DNA of 64,000 nt, taken from the NCBI RefSeq assembly GCF_030384885.1, contig NZ_CP128613.1; one strand, 5' to 3'. Both the position numbers and the translations under genes were made by a program. The notes beneath the pieces were generated by a model. That model did not search any database, was not told the origin of the DNA, and was given only the letters and a program-made list of their open reading frames with translations. Source of the DNA: Escherichia coli. Its GTDB lineage: Bacteria; Pseudomonadota; Gammaproteobacteria; Enterobacterales; Enterobacteriaceae. Below, in pieces: positions 8,302-42,274 of this stretch (position 1 is its first letter; each line of letters opens with the position of its first letter).

Positions 8302-8730
8302 TTAATCTCCCGTAAGTGGAACTAACAGCACATCGACCTCACTTGAGGCAATCACTCTTTTCGCCGAGCAGGATGCTCGCGAAAAGAAACTGTGATTGTG
8401 ATTACCGCAAATCACCAAATCGAAATGATGTTTGCGACAAACCTCCAGAATATGTTCGCTTAACTCACCGTAGGCAATAAACGTCTCGTCAACGGGATAC
8501 CCCGCATCCTGAATTAACTTATCAAGAAAGCTTTGCGTTTCTTCCTGCATCACGCTGCGTAAATCTTCAAGCATCGGCGCGGCTAATTGATTGTACATTT
8601 CCGGGTCGGAAGCGAGAGTAATTAAACTGATGTGTCCCTTTACTGGCCTGGCGATAGATACCGCTTTTGCTAGCAGTTGCTGACTTTCCGGTGTAACCGC
8701 AACGGCGACAAGAATATTGCTATAGCTCAT
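8302..8730 (-). CDS. uspC: Universal stress protein UspC (142 aa)
   Basis: 142-aa ORF MSYSNILVAVAVTPESQQLL...; Usp fold; matches remembered UspC (YecG). Confidence 0.92.
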   Translation of the reverse strand: MSYSNILVAVAVTPESQQLLAKAVSIARPVKGHISLITLASDPEMYNQLAAPMLEDLRSVMQEETQSFLDKLIQDAGYPVDETFIAYGELSEHILEVCRKHHFDLVICGNHNHSFFSRASCSAKRVIASSEVDVLLVPLTGD

Positions 8731-9232
8731 AACCTGTTCCTTATTCTGTGAACTTCAGGTGACATTAAAGCTTTACTCCTAATGGAGAATCGACGCAATC
8801 CCAACTCAGTCAAACAGGTAAATATTAGTGTGATTATTAGTAAATACAATTAATCAATCACTCTCGGTGATCATATGATTTCAACTGTAATTATAAGAAA
8901 ATATTGTACTGATTCTCCATATTAAACAAGTGGTTAATATATCTAAAACATTTTGTTAACATTAAGTGGGTTGTTGCCTGTCTTTGCCTTTAATCAGTTT
9001 ATTGTGTTGTAAGTGCCTGTTTGTAAATAGATTAACTGATTTTGGATTTGACCAATTATTTATAGCAGATGATTATTTACGGTGAGTTATTTTAACTGTG
9101 CGAAACATCTCATTTCGATTATTACGGTTTCACTTTTGCTTACCATCGGTGTGAAAAACTTTTTAACAGATTGAAATACACCCAAAACAAAAGTATGACT
9201 TATACATTTATGTTAAGTAATTGAGTATTTTA

Positions 9233-9248
9233 TGTGATCTGCATCACA
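9233..9248. promoter_or_regulatory. CRP site of the flhDC class I promoter (TGTGATCTGCATCACA)
   Basis: Perfect CRP consensus palindrome about 270 bp upstream of the flhD ATG, consistent with the known CRP activation site centred near -72 of the flhD promoter. Confidence 0.75.
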
Positions 9249-9314
9249 CATTATTGAAAATCGCAGTACCCCTCCGTTGTATGTGCGTGTAGTGACGAGT
9301 ACAGTTGCGTCGAT

Positions 9315-9512
9315 TTAGGAAAAATCTTAGATAAGTGTAAAGTACCCCCTCTATTTGTAAGGACCTATTAAACCCAATAAGGTGGGGGCTGTTTTATTGC
9401 AGCTTATCGCAACTATTCTAATGCTAATTACTTTTTACCGGGGCTTCCCGGCGACATCACGGGGTGCGGTGAGACCGCATAAAAATAAAGTTGGTTATTC
9501 TGGGTGGGAATA
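9315..9512 (+). promoter_or_regulatory. Long flhDC 5' untranslated leader (approximate)
   Basis: Established knowledge: the flhD transcript starts about 198 nt upstream of the ATG; the CRP site spacing here fits a start near 9312-9315; boundaries approximate. Confidence 0.45.
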
Positions 9513-9863
9513 ATGCATACCTCCGAGTTGCTGAAACACATTTATGACATCAACTTGTCATATTTACTACTTGCACAGCGTCTGATTGTTCAGGACAAAG
9601 CGTCCGCAATGTTTCGTCTCGGCATAAATGAAGAAATGGCGACAACGTTAGCGGCACTGACTCTTCCGCAAATGGTTAAGCTGGCAGAAACCAATCAACT
9701 GGTTTGTCACTTTCGTTTTGACAGCCACCAGACGATTACTCAGTTGACGCAAGATTCCCGCGTTGACGATCTCCAGCAAATTCATACCGGCATCATGCTC
9801 TCAACACGCTTGCTGAATGATGTTAATCAGCCTGAAGAATCGCTGCGCAAGAAAAGGGCGTGA
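9513..9863 (+). CDS. flhD: Flagellar master regulator subunit FlhD (116 aa; alternative GTG start at 9504 gives 119 aa)
   Basis: [29 protein letters not shown]... matches remembered FlhD; track ORF starts 3 codons earlier at a GTG. Confidence 0.93.
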
Positions 9864-21504: not shown

Positions 21505-22653
21505 GTGTCTGACGAGAGCGACGACAAAACAGAAGCCCCCACACCCCACCGACTTGAAAAAGCGCGGGAGGAGGGGCAGATCCCGCGTTCCCGTGAACTG
21601 ACCTCACTGCTGATTTTGTTGGTGGGCGTCTGTGTTATCTGGTTTGGCGGTGTGTCGCTGGCCCGTCGATTGTCGGGCATGCTCTCCGCTGGGCTGCATT
21701 TTGATCACAATATTATCAATGACCCGAATCTGATCCTCGGGCAGATTATTCTGCTGATCAGAGAAGCCATGTTGGGGCTGCTGCCGCTGATTAGCGGCGT
21801 GGTGCTGGTGGCGCTCATTTCTCCGGTCATGCTGGGGGGGCTGGTATTTAGCGGCAAATCCTTGCAGCCAAAGTTTTCCAAACTCAACCCGCTACCGGGA
21901 ATTAAACGGATGTTCTCGGCACAGACTGGCGCGGAGTTGCTTAAAGCGATTTTGAAAACCATCCTGGTTGGCAGCGTGACGGGGTTTTATCTCTGGCATC
22001 ACTGGCCGCAGATGATGCGCTTAATGGCTGAGTCTCCGATTACTGCCATGGGTAATGCGATGGATCTGGTTGGGCTATGCGCACTGCTGGTGGTGCTTGG
22101 TGTTATTCCGATGGTGGGATTTGACGTCTTTTTCCAAATCTTTAGCCACCTGAAAAAACTGCGTATGTCGCGGCAGGATATTCGTGATGAGTTTAAACAA
22201 AGCGAAGGCGACCCTCATGTTAAGGGGCGGATCCGTCAGATGCAGCGAGCTGCCGCACGGCGTCGGATGATGAACGATGTGCCGAAAGCGGATGTCATTG
22301 TCAATAACCCGACCCACTATTCGGTAGCGTTGCAGTATGACGAACACAAAATGAGCGCACCGAAAGTGGTCGCTAAAGGTGCAGGGCTGGTCGCACTGCG
22401 CATTCGTGAAATTGGCGCTGAAAATAACGTCCCTACGCTTGAAGCGCCGCCGCTGGCGCGAGCGCTGTATCGACATGCGGAGATCGGTCAACAAATCCCA
22501 GGCCAACTGTACGCCGCAGTGGCGGAAGTGCTGGCCTGGGTCTGGCAACTGAAACGCTGGCGTCTGGCTGGTGGACAGCGCCCTGTACAACCTACTCATC
22601 TTCCGGTGCCGGAAGCCCTGGATTTTATTAACGAGAAACCGACCCATGAGTAA
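21505..22653 (+). CDS. flhB: Flagellar export apparatus protein FlhB (382 aa, GTG start)
   Basis: (V)SDESDDKTEAPTPHRLEKAREEGQIPRSREL...; NPTH autocleavage motif present. Confidence 0.95.
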   Translation: MSDESDDKTEAPTPHRLEKAREEGQIPRSRELTSLLILLVGVCVIWFGGVSLARRLSGMLSAGLHFDHNIINDPNLILGQIILLIREAMLGLLPLISGVVLVALISPVMLGGLVFSGKSLQPKFSKLNPLPGIKRMFSAQTGAELLKAILKTILVGSVTGFYLWHHWPQMMRLMAESPITAMGNAMDLVGLCALLVVLGVIPMVGFDVFFQIFSHLKKLRMSRQDIRDEFKQSEGDPHVKGRIRQMQRAAARRRMMNDVPKADVIVNNPTHYSVALQYDEHKMSAPKVVAKGAGLVALRIREIGAENNVPTLEAPPLARALYRHAEIGQQIPGQLYAAVAEVLAWVWQLKRWRLAGGQRPVQPTHLPVPEALDFINEKPTHE

Positions 22654-24724
22654 TCTGGCCGCGATGCTGCGCCTGCCCGCAAACCTGAAATCGACACAAT
22701 GGCAGATCCTTGCCGGACCGATTTTGATCCTGTTGATCTTGTCGATGATGGTGCTGCCACTGCCCGCATTCATACTCGACCTGCTGTTCACCTTCAATAT
22801 TGCCTTGTCGATCATGGTGTTGCTGGTCGCGATGTTTACCCAGCGCACGCTCGAGTTTGCTGCGTTTCCGACCATTCTGTTGTTTACCACCCTGTTACGT
22901 CTGGCACTTAACGTGGCTTCAACCCGTATCATTTTGATGGAAGGGCATACTGGCGCGGCGGCGGCAGGGAAGGTGGTCGAAGCGTTCGGTCACTTCCTCG
23001 TTGGTGGCAATTTCGCTATCGGTATCGTGGTGTTCGTCATTCTCGTGATCATCAACTTTATGGTTATTACCAAAGGTGCCGGGCGTATCGCAGAAGTAGG
23101 CGCGCGCTTTGTTCTCGATGGTATGCCAGGAAAGCAGATGGCGATTGATGCCGACCTTAACGCCGGACTGATTGGTGAAGATGAGGCGAAAAAACGCCGC
23201 AGTGAAGTCACTCAGGAAGCCGATTTTTACGGCTCAATGGACGGAGCAAGTAAGTTTGTTCGCGGCGATGCCATCGCCGGGATCCTCATCATGGTCATTA
23301 ACGTTGTCGGCGGATTGCTGGTCGGTGTGCTGCAACATGGCATGAGCATGGGACATGCGGCGGAAAGTTATACGCTATTGACCATTGGTGACGGTCTGGT
23401 AGCACAAATCCCGGCGCTGGTGATTTCTACCGCCGCGGGGGTTATCGTTACGCGCGTCAGCACTGATCAGGATGTTGGCGAACAGATGGTGAATCAGCTT
23501 TTCAGTAACCCGAGCGTTATGTTGTTAAGCGCCGCCGTGCTCGGTTTACTCGGCCTGGTGCCTGGAATGCCGAACCTGGTATTTTTGCTGTTCACTGCCG
23601 GATTGCTGGGGCTGGCCTGGTGGATCCGCGGACGCGAACAAAAAGCGCCTGCCGAACCAAAACCGGTAAAAATGGCAGAGAATAATGCCGTTGTCGAAGC
23701 AACGTGGAACGATGTTCAACTGGAAGATTCTCTGGGAATGGAAGTGGGTTATCGACTGATCCCGATGGTCGATTTTCAGCAGGATGGTGAACTACTGGGT
23801 CGTATTCGCAGTATTCGCAAGAAATTTGCTCAGGAAATGGGCTTTCTGCCGCCGGTAGTACACATTCGCGACAATATGGATCTGCAACCTGCCCGCTACC
23901 GTATTTTGATGAAAGGCGTGGAGATAGGCAGTGGTGATGCATATCCGGGGCGCTGGTTGGCAATAAACCCAGGTACCGCAGCTGGAACGTTACCTGGAGA
24001 GGCGACCGTCGATCCGGCATTTGGTCTGAATGCTATCTGGATTGAAAGTGCGCTAAAAGAACAGGCGCAGATTCAAGGGTATACCGTGGTTGAGGCCAGC
24101 ACGGTGGTGGCTACGCATCTTAACCACCTCATAAGCCAGCATGCCGCAGAGCTGTTTGGTCGTCAGGAGGCGCAACAGTTGCTGGATCGTGTCGCTCAGG
24201 AGATGCCAAAGCTGACGGAAGATCTCGTGCCTGGCGTCGTCACGCTCACCACACTGCATAAAGTGCTGCAAAATCTGCTCGATGAAAAAGTCCCGATTCG
24301 CGATATGCGCACTATTCTCGAAACGCTGGCGGAACATGCGCCCATCCAAAGCGATCCACATGAATTAACCGCCGTCGTGCGCGTGGCGTTAGGACGGGCT
24401 ATAACCCAGCAGTGGTTTCCTGGCAAAGATGAAGTCCATGTTATTGGCCTCGATACACCGCTGGAACGTTTGTTACTACAGGCCTTGCAGGGTGGGGGCG
24501 GATTGGAGCCTGGGCTGGCGGATCGTTTACTGGCACAAACTCAGGAAGCGCTATCCCGTCAGGAGATGCTGGGTGCGCCGCCAGTATTATTGGTGAACCA
24601 CGCGCTGCGACCATTATTGTCTCGCTTCCTGCGTCGCAGCCTGCCGCAGTTAGTGGTGCTGTCGAATCTGGAACTATCAGATAACCGACATATCCGTATG
24701 ACGGCGACGATTGGCGGCAAATAA
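22646..24724 (+). CDS. flhA: Flagellar export apparatus protein FlhA (692 aa)
   Basis: Track ORF trimmed to the ATG at 22646 (MSNLAAMLRLPANLKSTQWQILAGPILILL...); 8-nt overlap with flhB. Confidence 0.95.
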   Translation: MSNLAAMLRLPANLKSTQWQILAGPILILLILSMMVLPLPAFILDLLFTFNIALSIMVLLVAMFTQRTLEFAAFPTILLFTTLLRLALNVASTRIILMEGHTGAAAAGKVVEAFGHFLVGGNFAIGIVVFVILVIINFMVITKGAGRIAEVGARFVLDGMPGKQMAIDADLNAGLIGEDEAKKRRSEVTQEADFYGSMDGASKFVRGDAIAGILIMVINVVGGLLVGVLQHGMSMGHAAESYTLLTIGDGLVAQIPALVISTAAGVIVTRVSTDQDVGEQMVNQLFSNPSVMLLSAAVLGLLGLVPGMPNLVFLLFTAGLLGLAWWIRGREQKAPAEPKPVKMAENNAVVEATWNDVQLEDSLGMEVGYRLIPMVDFQQDGELLGRIRSIRKKFAQEMGFLPPVVHIRDNMDLQPARYRILMKGVEIGSGDAYPGRWLAINPGTAAGTLPGEATVDPAFGLNAIWIESALKEQAQIQGYTVVEASTVVATHLNHLISQHAAELFGRQEAQQLLDRVAQEMPKLTEDLVPGVVTLTTLHKVLQNLLDEKVPIRDMRTILETLAEHAPIQSDPHELTAVVRVALGRAITQQWFPGKDEVHVIGLDTPLERLLLQALQGGGGLEPGLADRLLAQTQEALSRQEMLGAPPVLLVNHALRPLLSRFLRRSLPQLVVLSNLELSDNRHIRMTATIGGK

Positions 24725-25116
24725 TGAGAGCCTTATTAGCAATATTATTGTTTCCGCTGCTGGCGCAAGCCGCCGGGGAGGGGATGTGGCAGGCGAGCAG
24801 TGTGGGCGTTACGTTAAATCACCGTGGTGAATCGATGTCGTCAGCGCCTCTTTCTTCGCGACAACCTGCATCAGGATTGATGACGCTGGTTGCGTGGCGT
24901 TATCAGCTTATCGGCCCAACTCCCGTAGGGCTGCGGGTTCGCTTGTGTTCACAATCTCGTTGTGTCGAATTAGAGGGGCAGAGCGGAACCACCGTGGCCT
25001 TTTCCGGTATACCGGCGGCAGAACCGTTGCGATTTATCTGGGAAGTGCCTGGCGGCGGGCGGTTAACTCCGCCGCTAAAAGTACAACGTAATGAAGTGAT
25101 TGTGAATTATCGCTGA
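24724..25116 (+). CDS. flhE: Flagellar protein FlhE (130 aa, periplasmic)
   Basis: MRALLAILLFPLLAQAAGEGMWQASSVGVTL...; signal peptide; start overlaps the flhA stop (TAATGA). Confidence 0.92.
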   Translation: MRALLAILLFPLLAQAAGEGMWQASSVGVTLNHRGESMSSAPLSSRQPASGLMTLVAWRYQLIGPTPVGLRVRLCSQSRCVELEGQSGTTVAFSGIPAAEPLRFIWEVPGGGRLTPPLKVQRNEVIVNYR

Positions 25117-25164
25117 AGGACAAATAAAAATTACGCGCTCGCGGCATGTTTAATAACTCAGTGA

Positions 25165-25220
25165 AAAAGGCTCGATGTTTTGTTGCAATTATTTATCAGG
25201 AATAGCTTGCAACAAAACAT
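25165..25220. terminator. Perfect 14-bp inverted repeat (atgttttgttgcaa ... ttgcaacaaaacat) between the convergent flhE and yecT; likely bidirectional terminator
   Basis: Read directly in the sequence; arms separated by a 28-nt AT-rich loop; sits between two convergent stop codons. Confidence 0.55.
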
Positions 25221-25236
25221 GCCAAAAATATGTGAA

Positions 25237-25746
25237 TTATCCTCTTGTCAAAGGGCTTGGATAAAAATCTTCAGAGTTACGGTATAACTGCAACTGGCGA
25301 GTTCGCGTATTGGTCTGTATGATCATACATGAGAGCCATTCTGATTCAGAATAAGGGGCACTTAAATCCTGAACGTCTTCATTTGAAAGGATTAATTCAC
25401 ATTCTTTGTCCCTAAAATCCAGCCAGGCTCGTTGTGATTTTTTAAGCAAGTTAAGTTGTTCGGTATCAGGTTTTTTGACACCTGTGCGTGGTACTTGTTC
25501 TATATAACGATAAGCTTCACCATAAGCTTTATTTAATTGCGCATCGACGAGATTGTATTCTTGTCGCAGGCATGATTTGATCACGTTAATGTCAGTATCA
25601 TCATCTGAATTTTTTTGCCAACAATCTTTGATGGCTGAAATGTCATGGTCATTGACTATAACCGTATCTTCTGCGTAAGCCTGGCAAGAGATAATGCCTA
25701 ATGTTAATACAAGAAATTTAAACACTGCGGTATTCCTTAAATTCAA
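25237..25746 (-). CDS. yecT: DUF1311 (LprI-like) periplasmic protein YecT (169 aa)
   Basis: MNLRNTAVFKFLVLTLGIISCQAYAEDTVIV...; signal peptide; visibly AT-rich coding sequence; position between flhE and argS. Confidence 0.8.
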   Translation of the reverse strand: MNLRNTAVFKFLVLTLGIISCQAYAEDTVIVNDHDISAIKDCWQKNSDDDTDINVIKSCLRQEYNLVDAQLNKAYGEAYRYIEQVPRTGVKKPDTEQLNLLKKSQRAWLDFRDKECELILSNEDVQDLSAPYSESEWLSCMIIQTNTRTRQLQLYRNSEDFYPSPLTRG

Positions 25747-25844
25747 CCGTTATCGTTTCCCTGGGGCCGGATATTACGCTTCTGGCCTCTTATCCAATAG
25801 TGAGAAAACAGTGGCATGTCCATTTTCAGAATACATTTAGATGG

Positions 25845-25881
25845 CAATAAAAAAGCCTGATCAGGTAACCCTGATCAGGCT
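25845..25881 (-). terminator. Rho-independent terminator of argS
   Basis: Minus-strand hairpin gcctgatcagg/cctgatcaggc followed by a U-run (A-run on the plus strand at 25845-25855). Confidence 0.8.
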
Positions 25882-25901
25882 TCACTCTCACGAAAAATCG
25901 A

Positions 25902-27635
25902 TTACATACGCTCTACTGTCTCAATACCCAGCGTATCCAGGCCCAGCTTCAGCGTCTTCGCCGTCAGTTGTGCCAGTTTCAGACGACTGTTACGCACTTC
26001 TTCGTTTTCTGCGCTGAGGATCGGGCAGTGCTCGTAGAAGCCAGAGAACAGACCGGCCAGATCGTACAGGTAAGCACACATCACGTGCGGCGTGCCTTCA
26101 CGGGCAACCACAGTGAGGGTTTCTTCAAACTGCAGCAGGCGAGCTGCCAGTTGTGCCTCACGATCTTCACGGATGATTACCGGAGCTGCAGCCAGTTGCT
26201 CTTCGTCAATTTCTGCTTTACGGAACACGGACAATACACGCGTGTAAGCATACTGCATGTATGGCGCGGTATTACCCTCAAACGCCAGCATGTTGTCCCA
26301 GTCGAAGATGTAGTCAGTGGTACGGTTTTTGGAGAGATCTGCGTATTTAACCGCACCAATACCAACCGCATTAGCCAGTTTTTCCAGCTCATCGGCTGGC
26401 ATATCCGGGTTCTTCTCTGCCACCAGACGGCGTGCGCGTTCCAGGGCTTCATCCAGCAGATCGGCCAGTTTCACCGTACCGCCAGCACGCGTTTTGAACG
26501 GTTTGCCGTCTTTGCCCAGCATCATGCCGAACATATGATGTTCCAGCGGTACGGATTCCGGCACATAGCCTGCTTTACGGACGATAGCCCACGCCTGCAT
26601 CAGGTGTTGATGCTGGCGGGAGTCGATGTAATACAGCACGCGATCGGCATGCAATGTTTCATAACGATATTTTGCACAGGCGATATCAGTGGTGGTGTAG
26701 AGATAGCCGCCATCTTTCTTCTGAATGATCACGCCCATCGGTTCGCCTTCCTTGTTTTTGAACTCATCAAGGAATACGACGGTTGCGCCTTCGCTTTCTA
26801 CAGCCAGACCTTTGGCTTTGAGATCAGCCACGATACCCGGCAGCATCGGGTTGTACAGGCTTTCGCCCATCACGTCATCACGGGTCAGCGTCACGTTCAA
26901 ACGATCGTAGGTGATCTGGTTCTGCGTCATGGTGATGTCGACCAGTTTGCGCCACATCTCACGGAAGTATTCATCACCGCTTTGCAGTTTTACCACGTAG
27001 TTACGTGCACGCTCAGCGAACGCTTCATCTTCATCGTAATGCTTTTTCGCATCGCGGTAGAAACCTTCAAGATCAGCCAGCTCCATTTCACCGGCATTTT
27101 CCTGCTGCTGCTTTTCCAGCCATGCAATCAGCATACCGAACTGAGTGCCCCAGTCGCCGACGTGGTTTGCGCGAATCACTTTGTGACCGAGGAACTCCAG
27201 AGTACGCACTGCTGCGTCACCAATAATGGTAGAGCGCAGGTGACCGACGTGCATCTCTTTCGCCACGTTTGGCGCAGAGTAGTCAACCACAATGGTCTGT
27301 TTTTCTGGCGTAGCAACACCGAGACGATCGGACGCCAGCGCCTGCTGAACATGTTCAGCCAGGAATGCCGGATCAAGGAAAATGTTGATAAAGCCTGGTC
27401 CGGCGATCTCAACCTTGCTGGCGATACCGTTAAGATCCAGATGAGTCAGCACCTGCTCTGCTAATTGTCGCGGTGCCATACCCAGTTTTTTAGCAACTGC
27501 CATCATGCCGTTAGCCTGATAGTCGCCGAACTGAACTTTTGCTGACTGACGAACCTGCGGTTCGCAATCCGCAGGCGCGCCTGCCGCAATCATGGCCTGA
27601 CGGACTTTTTCTGAGAGAAGAGCCTGAATATTCAC
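25902..27635 (-). CDS. argS: Arginine--tRNA ligase ArgS (577 aa)
   Basis: [43 protein letters not shown]...; HVGH and KMSK-type class I motifs. Confidence 0.97.
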
Positions 27636-28421: not shown

Positions 28422-29177
<756 letters not shown>

Positions 29178-29223
29178 TTTTTACCGTTGCATCATGTCGC
29201 CCAATATGATGCTTGCTCGTACC

Positions 29224-29257
29224 AGGCCCCTGCAATTTCAACAGGGGCCTTTTTTTA
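29224..29257 (+). terminator. Rho-independent terminator after cutC
   Basis: Stem aggcccctg/caggggcct, loop caatttcaa, followed by T7. Confidence 0.8.
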
Positions 29258-29562
29258 TCCCCGAGAAGTATAAAAAACGAACGATTTCTGTGATCAGTTG
29301 AGCGCGTGACAGTGCGCATAGCGTTGTGCTAAAAATTTTTATATATTCATATTAATTATGTAATTTAAATTACTAAAACTGACAAATATATATTCTAAAT
29401 AACAACTGGGTTATTCCTTAGCAATTAATGATTACATTGTAATAAATCATATTCTTTATCGATTATTTCAGGCAGTGTTGTGCCGAATTATGCAAGCGGT
29501 CAATTCGTTGTGTATTTAATTATACAATGATTTCGGTGTTCTGGAATTAATTAGAGGAATCT

Positions 29563-30663
29563 ATGCGAGGGAAAAAACGCATTGGGTTATTATTTTTGCT
29601 GATAACGGTTGTGGTTGGTGGCGGCGGGTTATTACTGGCGCAAAAAGCCTTACATAAAACGTCGGATACCGCATTTTGCCTTTCCTGCCACTCGATGAGT
29701 AAACCTTTTGAGGAATATCAGGGAACTGTCCACTTTTCTAACCAGAAAGGGATACGTGCGGAATGTGCCGATTGCCATATTCCAAAGTCAGGGGTGGATT
29801 ATTTATTTGCTAAATTAAAAGCTTCTAAAGATATTTATCATGAATTTGTTAGCGGCAAAATAGACAGTGACGATAAGTTCGAAGCGCATCGTCAGGAAAT
29901 GGCCGAAACAGTATGGAAAGAATTAAAAGCAACTGATTCTGCAACGTGTCGTAGTTGCCATTCTTTTGATGCCATGGATATTGCCTCGCAAAGTGAATCT
30001 GCGCAGAAAATGCATAACAAAGCGCAAAAGGACGGCGAAACCTGCATCGATTGTCATAAAGGCATTGCCCATTTTCCACCAGAAATAAAAATGGATGACA
30101 ACGCGGCGCATGAGCTGGAAAGTCAGGCCGCTACTTCAGTTACCAATGGCGCACATATTTATCCTTTCAAAACTTCTCGCATAGGCGAGCTGGCTACCGT
30201 GAATCCTGGTACCGATCTCACCGTCGTTGATGCCAGTGGCAAACAGCCGATCGTTCTGTTGCAGGGTTATCAAATGCAGGGCAGTGAAAACACGCTCTAC
30301 CTGTCGGCAGGTCAACGGCTGGCGCTAGCCACATTAAGTGAAGAAGGTATCAAGGCGTTAACGGTAAACGGGGAATGGCAGGCTGACGAATACGGCAATC
30401 AATGGCGTCAGGCGTCTTTACAGGGTGTGCTTACCGATCCCGCATTAGCGGACCGTAAACCGCTATGGCAATACGCTGAAAAACTTGACGATACCTATTG
30501 CGCTGGTTGCCATGCCCCTATTGCCTCCGACCATTACACCGTCAATGCATGGCCGTCCATTGCCAAAGGAATGGGTGCGCGAACCAGCATGAGCGAAAAC
30601 GAACTGGACATTTTGACGCGGTACTTCCAGTACAACGCCAAAGATATTACCGAGAAACAGTGA
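29563..30663 (+). CDS. torY: Pentahaem c-type cytochrome TorY (NapC/NirT family; 366 aa)
   Basis: [27 protein letters not shown]...; multiple CxxCH haem motifs; AT-rich promoter region upstream. Confidence 0.93.
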
Positions 30664-40716: not shown

Positions 40717-41319
40717 TTATACCGCCTCAGTCAATTCAGGCTGAGGCGTTTCTACTCCCTCCGCATGAATCAACACCAAACCCGGATGATGCCACAAACT
40801 GGCTGGTGTTACGGTTTTACGCTCCCACGGAATCGAACCTAAAAACCAGAATTTCCAGAAAGTGAGTTTTGCGTTCGGATTGCTATTTAGCAGTTCTCCA
40901 AACGTCTCTATTTCACCCACCGGAATACATAACGCCTCTTTATAAATATCAAAAACGAATTTTGAGCAGAACTGGCGGGAAGATTCGTATTTAAAGCCGG
41001 TGTGGTAGAGCTTATGCAACCGTCCGGGGACCTTTTCGACCAGAGCAAGTTTTTGCTCTGCGGTTAAACCTCCTGCGAGGCGGCGAACACCGTAGCGTTG
41101 ATCGGTCGACCGTTCAATAAATCGTGACAAAGTTGTGATTGTGGAGAGCGGAACTCGACTCTCCGCAACCAGGTAATCATCACCGTCATGTCCGATGATT
41201 ATCCCCACATGGTTGCTCCAGCATTTCGAGGCTGCAGAGATTTGCCCAAACAGGCGAGCACCGATGCAGGTAAAAACAATATCACCGGTTTCATATTTAG
41301 CTGGGTAATTTATTTTCAC
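40717..41319 (-). CDS. yebB: Uncharacterised protein YebB (200 aa)
   Basis: [46 protein letters not shown]...; convergent with ruvC with 1 nt between the stop codons. Confidence 0.88.
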
Positions 41320-41412
41320 TATATCAATCCATTATTTATATATAAAACAGCATCTATCTTTCGTGATGGTAAAGCATTAGCATTGTATTATAATAATGAC
41401 AAGGAATGTTTT

Positions 41413-42237
41413 ATGCGGTTATTTATTAATGTGATAATTATAGTTTCGATCAGTCAATGCGTGAATGTATTTGCTCAAGATAATGTCATCCGCTATCCCT
41501 GGCGATATGGACGTATTTCTTTAAATGAGAATAATGAGTTTGTGCCTCAAATTATTCATATGCGTGATGATATCTACGGCGTGGGTGAAGCTGGTGCAAG
41601 CCTTAACGATGCGAGAATGGCGCAAAGTGGTGTCGCCGTGAGGCTTAGCGTTATACAGCAGGGGCAGGTGGTGAATGCTTTACTGGATTTCTACAATAGC
41701 AATAATCAACCTGCTTATATCTTTGAAGGTGGTTTGATGCCTTGCAATAAAGCCTTTGACATCACAACAAGCAACATTGTCCTTGATGGGATGTGTGGAA
41801 TTTATGATGGGGTCGATGGCTGGCAAGTTATTCCTGCGGGTGATCATTATAAAGAATCATTTTCACTCACTCAGGCTTTTGAATTTCTGCCGGGAAAACA
41901 TCATTATAAAATTAATGCCGGAAGTTTTATCATCAGAGTCGGGGATGATATTTTTGCAAGAGAGGACGCCGAAAGCATTCTTTTTGATTTGATTAACTGG
42001 CGATATGGCTATGTGCTAAAAAGTTATGAAAGGGTGTCGAAGTGGGATTTAATGGCAGGGACTTATGTACTGCCTGAATACTCGGGGGATAAAAGAATGG
42101 ATGAGTATCGAATTTACTCAAACCAGGTGTCGATTGATCTTAATGGTGACGAGTTAGCACATACGGAGTCCTATCAGTGGCGAATTGATAGCGGAATGAT
42201 CCCGGAAAAATTCAGCGTTCAGGAACTCGCTGAATGA
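41413..42237 (+). CDS. Hypothetical secreted/periplasmic protein (274 aa), function unknown; first gene of an AT-rich islet
   Basis: Track ORF 41188-42237 trimmed to the ATG at 41413 because the upstream part overlaps yebB on the opposite strand and 41413 has an RBS (AAGGAA); N-terminus MRLFINVIIIVSISQCVNVFA|QDN looks like a Sec signal peptide; hand-counted G+C about 38-40%; no recognised family. Confidence 0.65.
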   Translation: MRLFINVIIIVSISQCVNVFAQDNVIRYPWRYGRISLNENNEFVPQIIHMRDDIYGVGEAGASLNDARMAQSGVAVRLSVIQQGQVVNALLDFYNSNNQPAYIFEGGLMPCNKAFDITTSNIVLDGMCGIYDGVDGWQVIPAGDHYKESFSLTQAFEFLPGKHHYKINAGSFIIRVGDDIFAREDAESILFDLINWRYGYVLKSYERVSKWDLMAGTYVLPEYSGDKRMDEYRIYSNQVSIDLNGDELAHTESYQWRIDSGMIPEKFSVQELAE

Positions 42238-42274
42238 ATCGTCCTCTACCTGCTTGCCAGATACAGAGGCGCGG

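Follow-up and report, generated by a model that had tools for sequence, protein, structure and literature searches.

The flhE-argS spacer of Escherichia coli as a putative acquired islet carrying yecT, a candidate orphan immunity gene of the LprI family

LprI-domain proteins and the case of YecT

Genes of the LprI/DUF1311 family have been described in type VI secretion system (T6SS) loci, and the family also includes yecT, a gene located between flhE and argS in the 64,000-nt stretch of Escherichia coli DNA analysed here (RefSeq assembly GCF_030384885.1, contig NZ_CP128613.1; hereafter the window). In enterohaemorrhagic E. coli (EHEC) O157:H7 the DUF1311 protein Etsi4 (Z0245) rescues the toxicity of Etse4 (PMC12981562). 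Etsi4 is of the same Pfam family as YecT, of similar size (149 versus 162 aa) and likewise equipped with an export signal; it protects against a cell-wall effector acting in the periplasm, and its gene has been kept after inactivation of that effector. However, Etsi4 is validated and its gene adjoins that of the effector inside a T6SS cluster, whereas yecT stands alone and its product is known here from sequence. As a close paralogue of YecT, Etsi4 was rejected (21% identity). In the hcp island of T6SS1 of Pantoea agglomerans pv. betae, LprI-domain genes have been read as orphan immunity genes (PMC9796082; for Vibrio cholerae, Kirchberger 2017 is cited there). These orphans encode signal-peptide proteins and persist with no effector next to them, in T6SS islands that are variable and AT-rich, and relatives of the YecT clade occur in such arrays; the Pantoea orphans stay inside T6SS clusters, whereas E. 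coli yecT is remote from any T6SS locus and has its own promoter and a putative terminator of its own. E. coli K-12, which also carries yecT, is not known to have a T6SS. Further cases are the DUF1311/LprI proteins that flank effectors of the WHIX class (PMC12135965) and an LprI protein paired with a LysM/transglycosylase effector in Salmonella SPI-19 (PMC8867033). In the papers found to name yecT, the gene is nowhere tied to a T6SS. The account that we propose for the locus in the window, and towards which we lean slightly on balance, is that the flhE-argS spacer is an acquired islet, that YecT is an orphan immunity protein, and that an inverted repeat next to yecT is the terminator of this gene.

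Other described members of the family have been placed outside the T6SS. ScwA of Salmonella Typhimurium resembles YecT in being periplasmic and horizontally acquired and in having an LprI domain with conserved cysteines, which in ScwA form disulfides, but it is longer (275 aa), has the LprI domain at its C-terminus and acts on the levels of the endogenous MltD (PMC7933661). The UmoC family (NCBIfam NF041434) shows a weak profile similarity to YecT that extends over the whole LprI domain and is far below the cutoff; the likeness is equally weak for unrelated LprI proteins, and the flagellar link lies in the name of the family.

YecT itself matches the Pfam profile PF07007 (LprI/DUF1311) with 64.5 bits against a cutoff of 22 (E = 1.4e-17), over profile positions 1-106 of 106. 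By inspection, its N-terminus resembles a Sec-type signal peptide (MFKFLVLTLGIISCQAYA followed by ED), with a hydrophobic segment ending in A-x-A (AYA before ED), and in the alignment of the YecT clade this predicted signal segment is conserved, again by inspection. A first-pass annotation of the window, made from the letters alone, had assigned YecT to the DUF1311/LprI family, had called it a signal-peptide protein and had described its role in E. coli as unassigned; the profile match bears out the first of these statements, the export signal visible in the N-terminus agrees with the second, and the third holds in that YecT is without an experimentally shown function. Cysteines C35, C109 and C133 are invariant and C52 is nearly invariant across the YecT clade, and conservation of cysteines throughout the LprI family has been described (PMC7933661). 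The AlphaFold2 model of YecT is an all-helical bundle of moderate confidence (pLDDT 70.5, pTM 0.68). Its top match in the PDB is 3gi7, a DUF1311 structure, and this match is weak (Foldseek E 0.29, probability 0.96, TM 0.42/0.61, rmsd 4.5); none of the 155 Foldseek matches of the model reached E <= 0.001, a PDB search with the sequence gave no significant relative, and PADLOC gave no match to YecT.

LprI of Mycobacterium tuberculosis, the founding member of the Pfam family, is a lipoprotein which, unlike YecT, has an additional MliC domain. The M. tuberculosis protein is a lysozyme inhibitor (cited in PMC7933661 and PMC12135965), and this activity, together with the match of YecT to a Pfam entry named 'Lysozyme inhibitor LprI' (PF07007) and its predicted periplasmic location, could suggest that YecT is an inhibitor of host (animal) lysozyme. 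We consider such a role improbable. That is, the lysozyme inhibition by LprI is attributed to the MliC domain (PMC7933661), whereas no MliC match (PF09864) was found in YecT, LprI being the sole domain found with Pfam; ScwA, which has the LprI domain only, gave no protection against lysozyme (PMC7933661); E. coli already encodes dedicated inhibitors, e.g. ivy; and the setting of the YecT relatives is the T6SS, not host interaction. The term 'lysozyme-inhibitor-like' used in the first-pass annotation is therefore apt as a family name but not as evidence of activity, given that YecT lacks MliC and that ScwA is not protective.

The dimorphic flhE-argS spacer

The yecT coding sequence has a GC content of 0.380, and of 0.319 at third codon positions (GC3), as compared to GC/GC3 values of 0.538/0.579 for flhA, 0.547/0.511 for flhE and 0.531/0.573 for argS. 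Among 489-bp segments across the 64 kb (mean 0.504, sd 0.043), yecT falls in the lowest 2.6%. The earlier description of yecT as more AT-rich than its flagellar and argS neighbours is thus confirmed by calculation (0.380 versus 0.53-0.55), its rank among segments of equal size marks it as compositionally foreign, and the convergent layout of flhE (+) and yecT (-) that had been read from the sequence agrees with the annotation. The window aligns collinearly with E. coli strain 2013C-4282 at 100% identity, so that its coordinates transfer 1:1 onto the annotation of that strain.

Two states of the spacer were found in a survey of 5,426 complete E. coli genomes. In 3,640 of them it is 785 bp long and contains yecT, whereas in 1,783, including O25b:H4-ST131, it is reduced to 52 bp, has a different hairpin and lacks yecT; both states together cover 5,423 of the 5,426 genomes, so that 67% of E. 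coli have yecT and 33% do not. In FlhE-anchored loci from species genomes, the islet was found in Escherichia sp. E1V33 and E. whittamii, and the compact spacer in E. albertii and the E. coli species representative. In Citrobacter, Salmonella, Enterobacter, Leclercia and others the same position is occupied by ~3 kb of DNA of normal GC content encoding a GH88 hydrolase and a PBP2-like transpeptidase. Compared in this way, the flhE-argS interval is not universally conserved.

A trace of the arrangement seen in these outgroups is still present in the islet. The 19-nt outgroup consensus CTGTTTTATAAATCAGTGA matches the window at a single place within the spacer (Table 1) and matches none of 100 shuffles, and the compact allele is devoid of this relic. 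Since the relic has been kept in the islet and is missing from the compact allele, the islet form appears to descend from the ancestral arrangement; the compact form is probably a later deletion. Between either of the two E. coli argS terminators and the outgroup terminators no homology was evident. In the outgroup genera named above, a motif of ~27 nt, AGAAACGCTGTTTTATAAATCAGTGAC, is strongly conserved ~85-110 nt 3' of flhE and precedes the GH88 gene and the PBP2-like gene (loci L009-L062, e.g. L014:4470-4500); it could be an operator or an RNA element, and positions 25146-25164 of the E. coli islet are a degraded copy of it.

Where intact, yecT shows ratios of nonsynonymous to synonymous divergence (dN/dS) of 0.06-0.22, including in comparisons with E. 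whittamii at dS 0.16-0.27. The gene is under purifying selection, and these ratios exclude that it is a non-functional remnant. The best explanation for the flhE-argS spacer is a small, old, horizontally acquired islet with a single functional gene, yecT. A rise of expression in the absence of H-NS and StpA is typical of silenced foreign genes. For yecT, the mRNA goes up moderately in an hns stpA mutant, BglJ-RcsB activates a promoter-lacZ fusion made with the intergenic region, and little expression is seen without constitutive BglJ (PMC3950696). In the window, the core of the BglJ-RcsB site may be placed at the match listed in Table 1.

Rare derivatives of the islet occur. In E. coli HH45 (L066, 3481-3669) a 189-bp spacer keeps 69 bp of the 5' end of yecT, an IS1-mediated deletion has removed flhE up to the end of yecT in another locus (L003), an IS1 insertion splits yecT in a further copy (hit H40), and frameshifted copies exist but are rare. 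Large yecT-flhD deletions have been published for K-12 derivatives (bioRxiv 10.1101/2025.03.19.644130 and 10.1101/2020.12.04.412072).

The 3' end of flhA and flhE (region 23700-25199) are 7-10% diverged from K-12, with a dS of 0.24 for flhE, and only 18 of the 5,426 genomes are at least 99% identical to the window over 24900-26100, indicating that the flhA/flhE allele of this strain is a rare one. The difference between the dS of flhE (0.24) and that of yecT (0.08) hinted at a recombination breakpoint where the two genes meet, but this was rejected: a 300-bp divergence profile against K-12 shows no sharp break, the whole region being 2-5% diverged with a local peak in flhA-3'/flhE.

Genomic setting of the YecT relatives and possible functions

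Relatives of YecT were collected by word-indexed searches with the single sequence and with a profile of the clade. The copies of Escherichia and Shigella are at least 83% identical; they are followed by about ten clusters at 53-62% identity and then by a gap down to ~32%. Contigs could be recovered for eight of the relatives at 53-62%. In five of the eight (L063, L064, L068, L070 and L071) the YecT-like gene is located directly upstream of a small PAAR gene, which on contigs of sufficient length is followed by genes for a 386-aa protein and TssM, the region spanning VgrG to PAAR-TssM. A sixth contig, L072, shares the gene types of L063 and is probably another T6SS context.

In four of the five loci, the genes upstream of the YecT-like gene encode effectors with peptidoglycan-hydrolase modules and small signal-peptide proteins. 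In L064, VgrG is followed by a 764-aa effector with a WHxxxH motif and a pesticin-lysozyme domain, by a translationally coupled gene for a 124-aa LprI protein (27% identical to YecT) and, 160 bp further on, by the YecT-like gene. This effector corresponds to the WHIX class in its WHxxxH motif, its pesticin-lysozyme C-terminus and its coupled 124-aa LprI gene; the coupled partner, however, is the 124-aa protein, and the YecT-like gene comes next. The upstream effectors of L068 and L070 end in GH19 chitinase-like domains, and that of L063 has a CHAP domain and is followed by four small signal-peptide proteins; in all, one to four small signal-peptide proteins are encoded ahead of the YecT-like gene in L063, L064, L068 and L070. 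The T6SS core genes of these loci have a GC content of 55-61%, as against 33-39% in the YecT-like gene as well as in the small genes and the toxin ends. The YecT-like genes by themselves, at 37-38% GC, match E. coli yecT, and the AT-richness of yecT would therefore be a property of the mobile cargo pool.

That the YecT-like gene is cargo is also indicated by its variable presence. L064 has a TssM with 93% identity to a cluster annotated as Pantoea agglomerans, but in a P. agglomerans genome with the same T6SS type (L077) the slot ahead of PAAR is filled by other genes, and a Shimwellia island of this type contains no LprI gene at all. Since the slot holds other genes while TssM is 91-93% identical across the loci, the YecT-like gene is variable cargo and not part of the T6SS core. 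In L077 (4714-5993), a truncated open reading frame with the pesticin domain (302 aa) is followed by the same 124-aa LprI gene as in L064; here the replacement of an effector is clearly recorded, a toxin fragment and its immunity gene having been retained.

Because the nearest relatives of YecT sit in T6SS loci for cell-wall effectors, we infer both an immunity function and the type of effector targeted, and YecT may be an orphan T6SS immunity protein of the DUF1311/LprI family, a proposal for which we see the balance as even. YecT would be exported to the periplasm and would there act by binding, and so neutralising, an effector that degrades peptidoglycan and is injected by rival Enterobacterales. 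Expression of yecT is normally held down by H-NS/StpA and can be turned on through BglJ-RcsB (PMC3950696). In the window the neighbours of yecT are flhE, yecV and argS, with no adjacent effector.

A number of observations weigh against an immunity function. The usual arrangement of a cognate pair is an immunity gene immediately after the effector gene, but in no locus seen did a gene of the YecT clade directly follow an effector. Rather, the YecT-like gene in T6SS loci is always the last before PAAR, one to four small genes away from the effector, so that none of the effectors could be paired with it. YecT is only 21% identical to Etsi4, the validated immunity protein, and two relatives (L065 and L067) lie outside any visible T6SS locus, in a genome of uniformly 35-38% GC, with the YecT-like gene of L065 adjoining flgE/flgD. 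Two proteins with the LprI fold have been tied to other processes: ScwA has an influence on the amount of MltD (PMC7933661), and the name given to UmoC is that of a flagellar biogenesis regulator (NCBIfam). Moreover, E. coli K-12, which is yecT+, is readily killed by T6SS attackers, e.g. Aeromonas (PMC12135965); yecT is, however, silent in laboratory culture, and immunity applies to specific effectors only.

In L065 and L067 the YecT-like gene is located between a peptidase gene and a gene for a 257-aa signal-peptide protein (L065:4595-5368, L067:4337-5110), which starts 10-13 nt after the YecT-like gene and is conserved, with no Pfam match. The annotated YecT-like open reading frames of these two contigs have an N-terminal extension that begins with MQGII, like PAAR proteins.

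Alternatively, YecT could act on the cell that makes it. Like ScwA or UmoC, it would then regulate or inhibit endogenous peptidoglycan hydrolases, or else envelope signalling, and there might be a tie to flagellum building or flhDC control. The gene abuts flhBAE and one distant relative lies beside flgE/flgD, but these two observations are the whole of the flagellar adjacency, and a third of E. coli as well as E. albertii lack yecT and yet keep flhBAE. The sole NCBIfam match of YecT is to the UmoC flagellar biogenesis regulator family, with a weak score of 36.6 bits, far short of the cutoff of 120; scores of 22-40 bits were obtained with all of the LprI proteins tested, Etsi4 among them, and of 23-40 bits with the relatives, which indicates generic fold similarity. 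The response of the yecT promoter to the Rcs partner BglJ-RcsB (PMC3950696) and the raising of MltD levels by the LprI-domain protein ScwA in Salmonella (PMC7933661) would fit a role of this kind, whereas the foreign composition of yecT and the occurrence of most of its relatives as T6SS island cargo do not. Overall, we regard a regulator of endogenous functions as rather unlikely. Membership in UmoC was also rejected for YecT and the proteins of L065 and L067 taken together (23-37 bits against the cutoff of 120).

If YecT is indeed an orphan immunity protein, this would provide a concrete and easily testable role for a K-12 y-gene without assigned function, and would mean that immunity genes spread and persist outside T6SS clusters, in strains that do not have the matching weapon. 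It would also predict lineage differences in T6SS susceptibility between yecT+ strains of A/B1/E type and yecT- strains of ST131 type. In its strongest form, which seems to us a long shot, the proposal would be that yecT is a working stand-alone immunity gene that protects two thirds of E. coli, including K-12, from a specific peptidoglycan-hydrolase effector of a Pantoea/Enterobacter-type T6SS, and that the dimorphism, shared across Escherichia species, is kept by competition in the gut or the environment. In a still more novel variant, the YecT clade would inhibit hydrolases that act on the cell's own wall in the service of trans-envelope machines such as the flagellum and the T6SS, and its recurrent adjacency to flagellar and T6SS genes would thereby be explained.

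The inverted repeat downstream of yecT

Between flhE and the 3' end of yecT lies a perfect 14-nt inverted repeat, the only one in the window with arms of at least 14 nt and a loop of 3-40 nt; 0.005 such repeats are expected per dinucleotide shuffle. The first-pass annotation had pointed out a perfect 14-bp repeat at this junction with a 28-nt loop, longer than in typical terminators. The repeat is there and is indeed long, but the loop measures 18 nt, and features of a terminator are nevertheless present on the yecT strand. That is, the A5 run on the plus strand becomes U5 in the yecT RNA and comes directly after a stem that is extended by GGC/GCC across a 3-nt bulge, and the 96-nt yecT 3' region folds with -27.6 kcal/mol (z = -4.3). 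No U-tract is present on the flhE strand, where CAAAAAUAUG comes after the hairpin.

Comparison of five alleles (the window, K-12, O157, E1V33 and E. whittamii) revealed no change in the right arm or in the GGC/GCC extension, and in the left arm only the single one of K-12. Variation is found in the loop, in the bulge and in the flank upstream; a bulge change shared by E1V33 and E. whittamii creates a fifteenth pair. The hairpin was absent 3' of the YecT-like genes of other organisms. The K-12-type allele is the commonest in E. coli, with 2,477 genomes within 99% of the K-12 77-mer. Its T to C change gives a C·A mismatch in the RNA of the flhE strand and a G·U wobble in the yecT RNA, so that relative to the window allele the fold on the yecT strand is maintained (-17.3 versus -17.2 kcal/mol) and that on the flhE strand is weakened (-16.5 versus -20.2 kcal/mol). 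In addition, a Rho-dependent termination region labelled 'antisense yecT' has been reported at K-12 position 1962401 (-) (PMC7815308, Supplementary file 2), and in the window this region lies ~76 nt past the hairpin on the flhE strand. Given that U5 is found on the yecT strand only, that the arms are conserved, that the K-12 variant pairs as G·U in the yecT RNA and that the Rho site lies beyond the hairpin, the inverted repeat is likely to be an intrinsic terminator of yecT itself, of an atypical, AU-rich and large-loop type. The yecT transcript would stop Rho-independently at the 14+3-bp stem and U5, and flhBAE transcripts would pass through the repeat and be stopped further on by Rho. More generally, a strand-specific G·U substitution can show which of two convergent genes owns an inverted repeat that looks shared.

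Several points speak against this assignment. The loop of 18 nt is large and the stem is AU-rich, with 4 of 14 G-C pairs in the main stem; a consensus terminator scan did not call the inverted repeat; and the U-tract is degraded in E. whittamii. The published Term-seq tables (PMC7815308) contain neither a yecT nor a flhE 3' end, the former being missing because the gene is essentially silent in the profiled conditions.

The inverted repeat, which lies at a convergent junction, might instead serve flhBAE as well, as a bidirectional terminator, or be a DNA palindrome bound by a protein or a relic of the mobile element that delivered the islet. The stable fold on the flhE strand in this allele (-20.2 kcal/mol) would be in keeping with sharing, and the repeat might act as an exonuclease barrier for the flhBAE mRNA, but the flhE strand has no U-tract and Rho-dependent termination is mapped 76 nt further on. 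Similarly, the symmetry expected of a DNA palindrome is broken in the majority K-12 allele, with C·A on the flhE strand and G·U on the yecT strand. For a mobile-element relic, there is the 11-nt direct repeat TGTGAATTATC that brackets the spacer; Rfam gave no match to the inverted repeat. We judge this group of alternatives quite unlikely compared with a terminator owned by yecT. An origin from a miniature inverted-repeat transposable element (MITE), an insertion sequence or another repeat element was rejected: the inverted repeat occurs in one place per genome in 3,522 genomes, without a second copy in the window, and its arms are internal to the direct repeats and not adjacent to them.

The two copies of this perfect direct repeat lie at 25101-25111, in the 3' end of flhE, and at 25231-25241, across the 3' end of yecT, on either side of the spacer that contains the hairpin. 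They could represent a microhomology junction or chance, ~0.1 such repeats being expected in the region.

Table 1. Coordinates of the features of the flhE-argS region in the window
Feature	Position	Strand	Description
flhA	22646-24724	+	annotation
flhE	24724-25116	+	annotation
AT-rich dimorphic flhE-argS spacer ('yecT islet')	25117-25901		785 bp, GC 0.386
Relic of conserved enterobacterial post-flhE sequence	25146-25164	+	outgroup consensus CTGTTTTATAAATCAGTGA, 3 mismatches
Putative yecT intrinsic terminator	25164-25223	-	14+3 bp stem, U5 tail; parts in + coordinates: GCC 25221-25223, right arm (TTGCAACAAAACAT) 25207-25220, loop 25189-25206, left arm (ATGTTTTGTTGCAA) 25175-25188, bulge 25172-25174, GGC 25169-25171, A5 25164-25168
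yecT coding sequence	25237-25725	-	RefSeq; 162 aa, GTG start, LprI/DUF1311 helical domain, four conserved cysteines
Rho-dependent termination region, flhBAE read-through	~25296	+	antisense to yecT; K-12 1962401 (-), mapped via the K-12 annotation
yecT promoter and 5' region	25726-25851	-	Shine-Dalgarno AAGGA; putative BglJ-RcsB core (wwTTCykA match TATTCTGA) at 25826-25833
yecV	25816-25860	+	RefSeq, this strain and K-12; 14-aa small protein, divergent from yecT
argS canonical intrinsic terminator	25852-25883	-	13-14 bp stem, 4-nt loop, U6; terminator scan and inverted repeat search
argS	25902-27635	-	annotation

The remaining features of the region are collected in Table 1. The annotated start of yecT is the GTG at 25725, and the TTG at 25746 is not an annotated start; the Shine-Dalgarno sequence at 25734-25738 is suitably spaced from the GTG. 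The stem of the argS terminator shows compensatory differences between alleles. Both this stem and the putative BglJ-RcsB core of the yecT promoter are overlapped by yecV, which in O157-type alleles is altered and annotated only as 'hypothetical protein'. An Rfam scan of 24600-26200 at E <= 1 returned only a chance-level isrA match inside argS.

Elsewhere in the window, two low-GC genes for 'hypothetical proteins' of 349 and 194 aa, with no Pfam or PADLOC match, are located on the plus strand at 41188-42859, between yebB/ruvC and ruvA, and may represent another small acquired islet. Other low-GC patches are the uspC-flhD regulatory region at 8411-9690 and the spacer from the cutC 3' end, the MicL region in K-12, to torY at 28971-30060.

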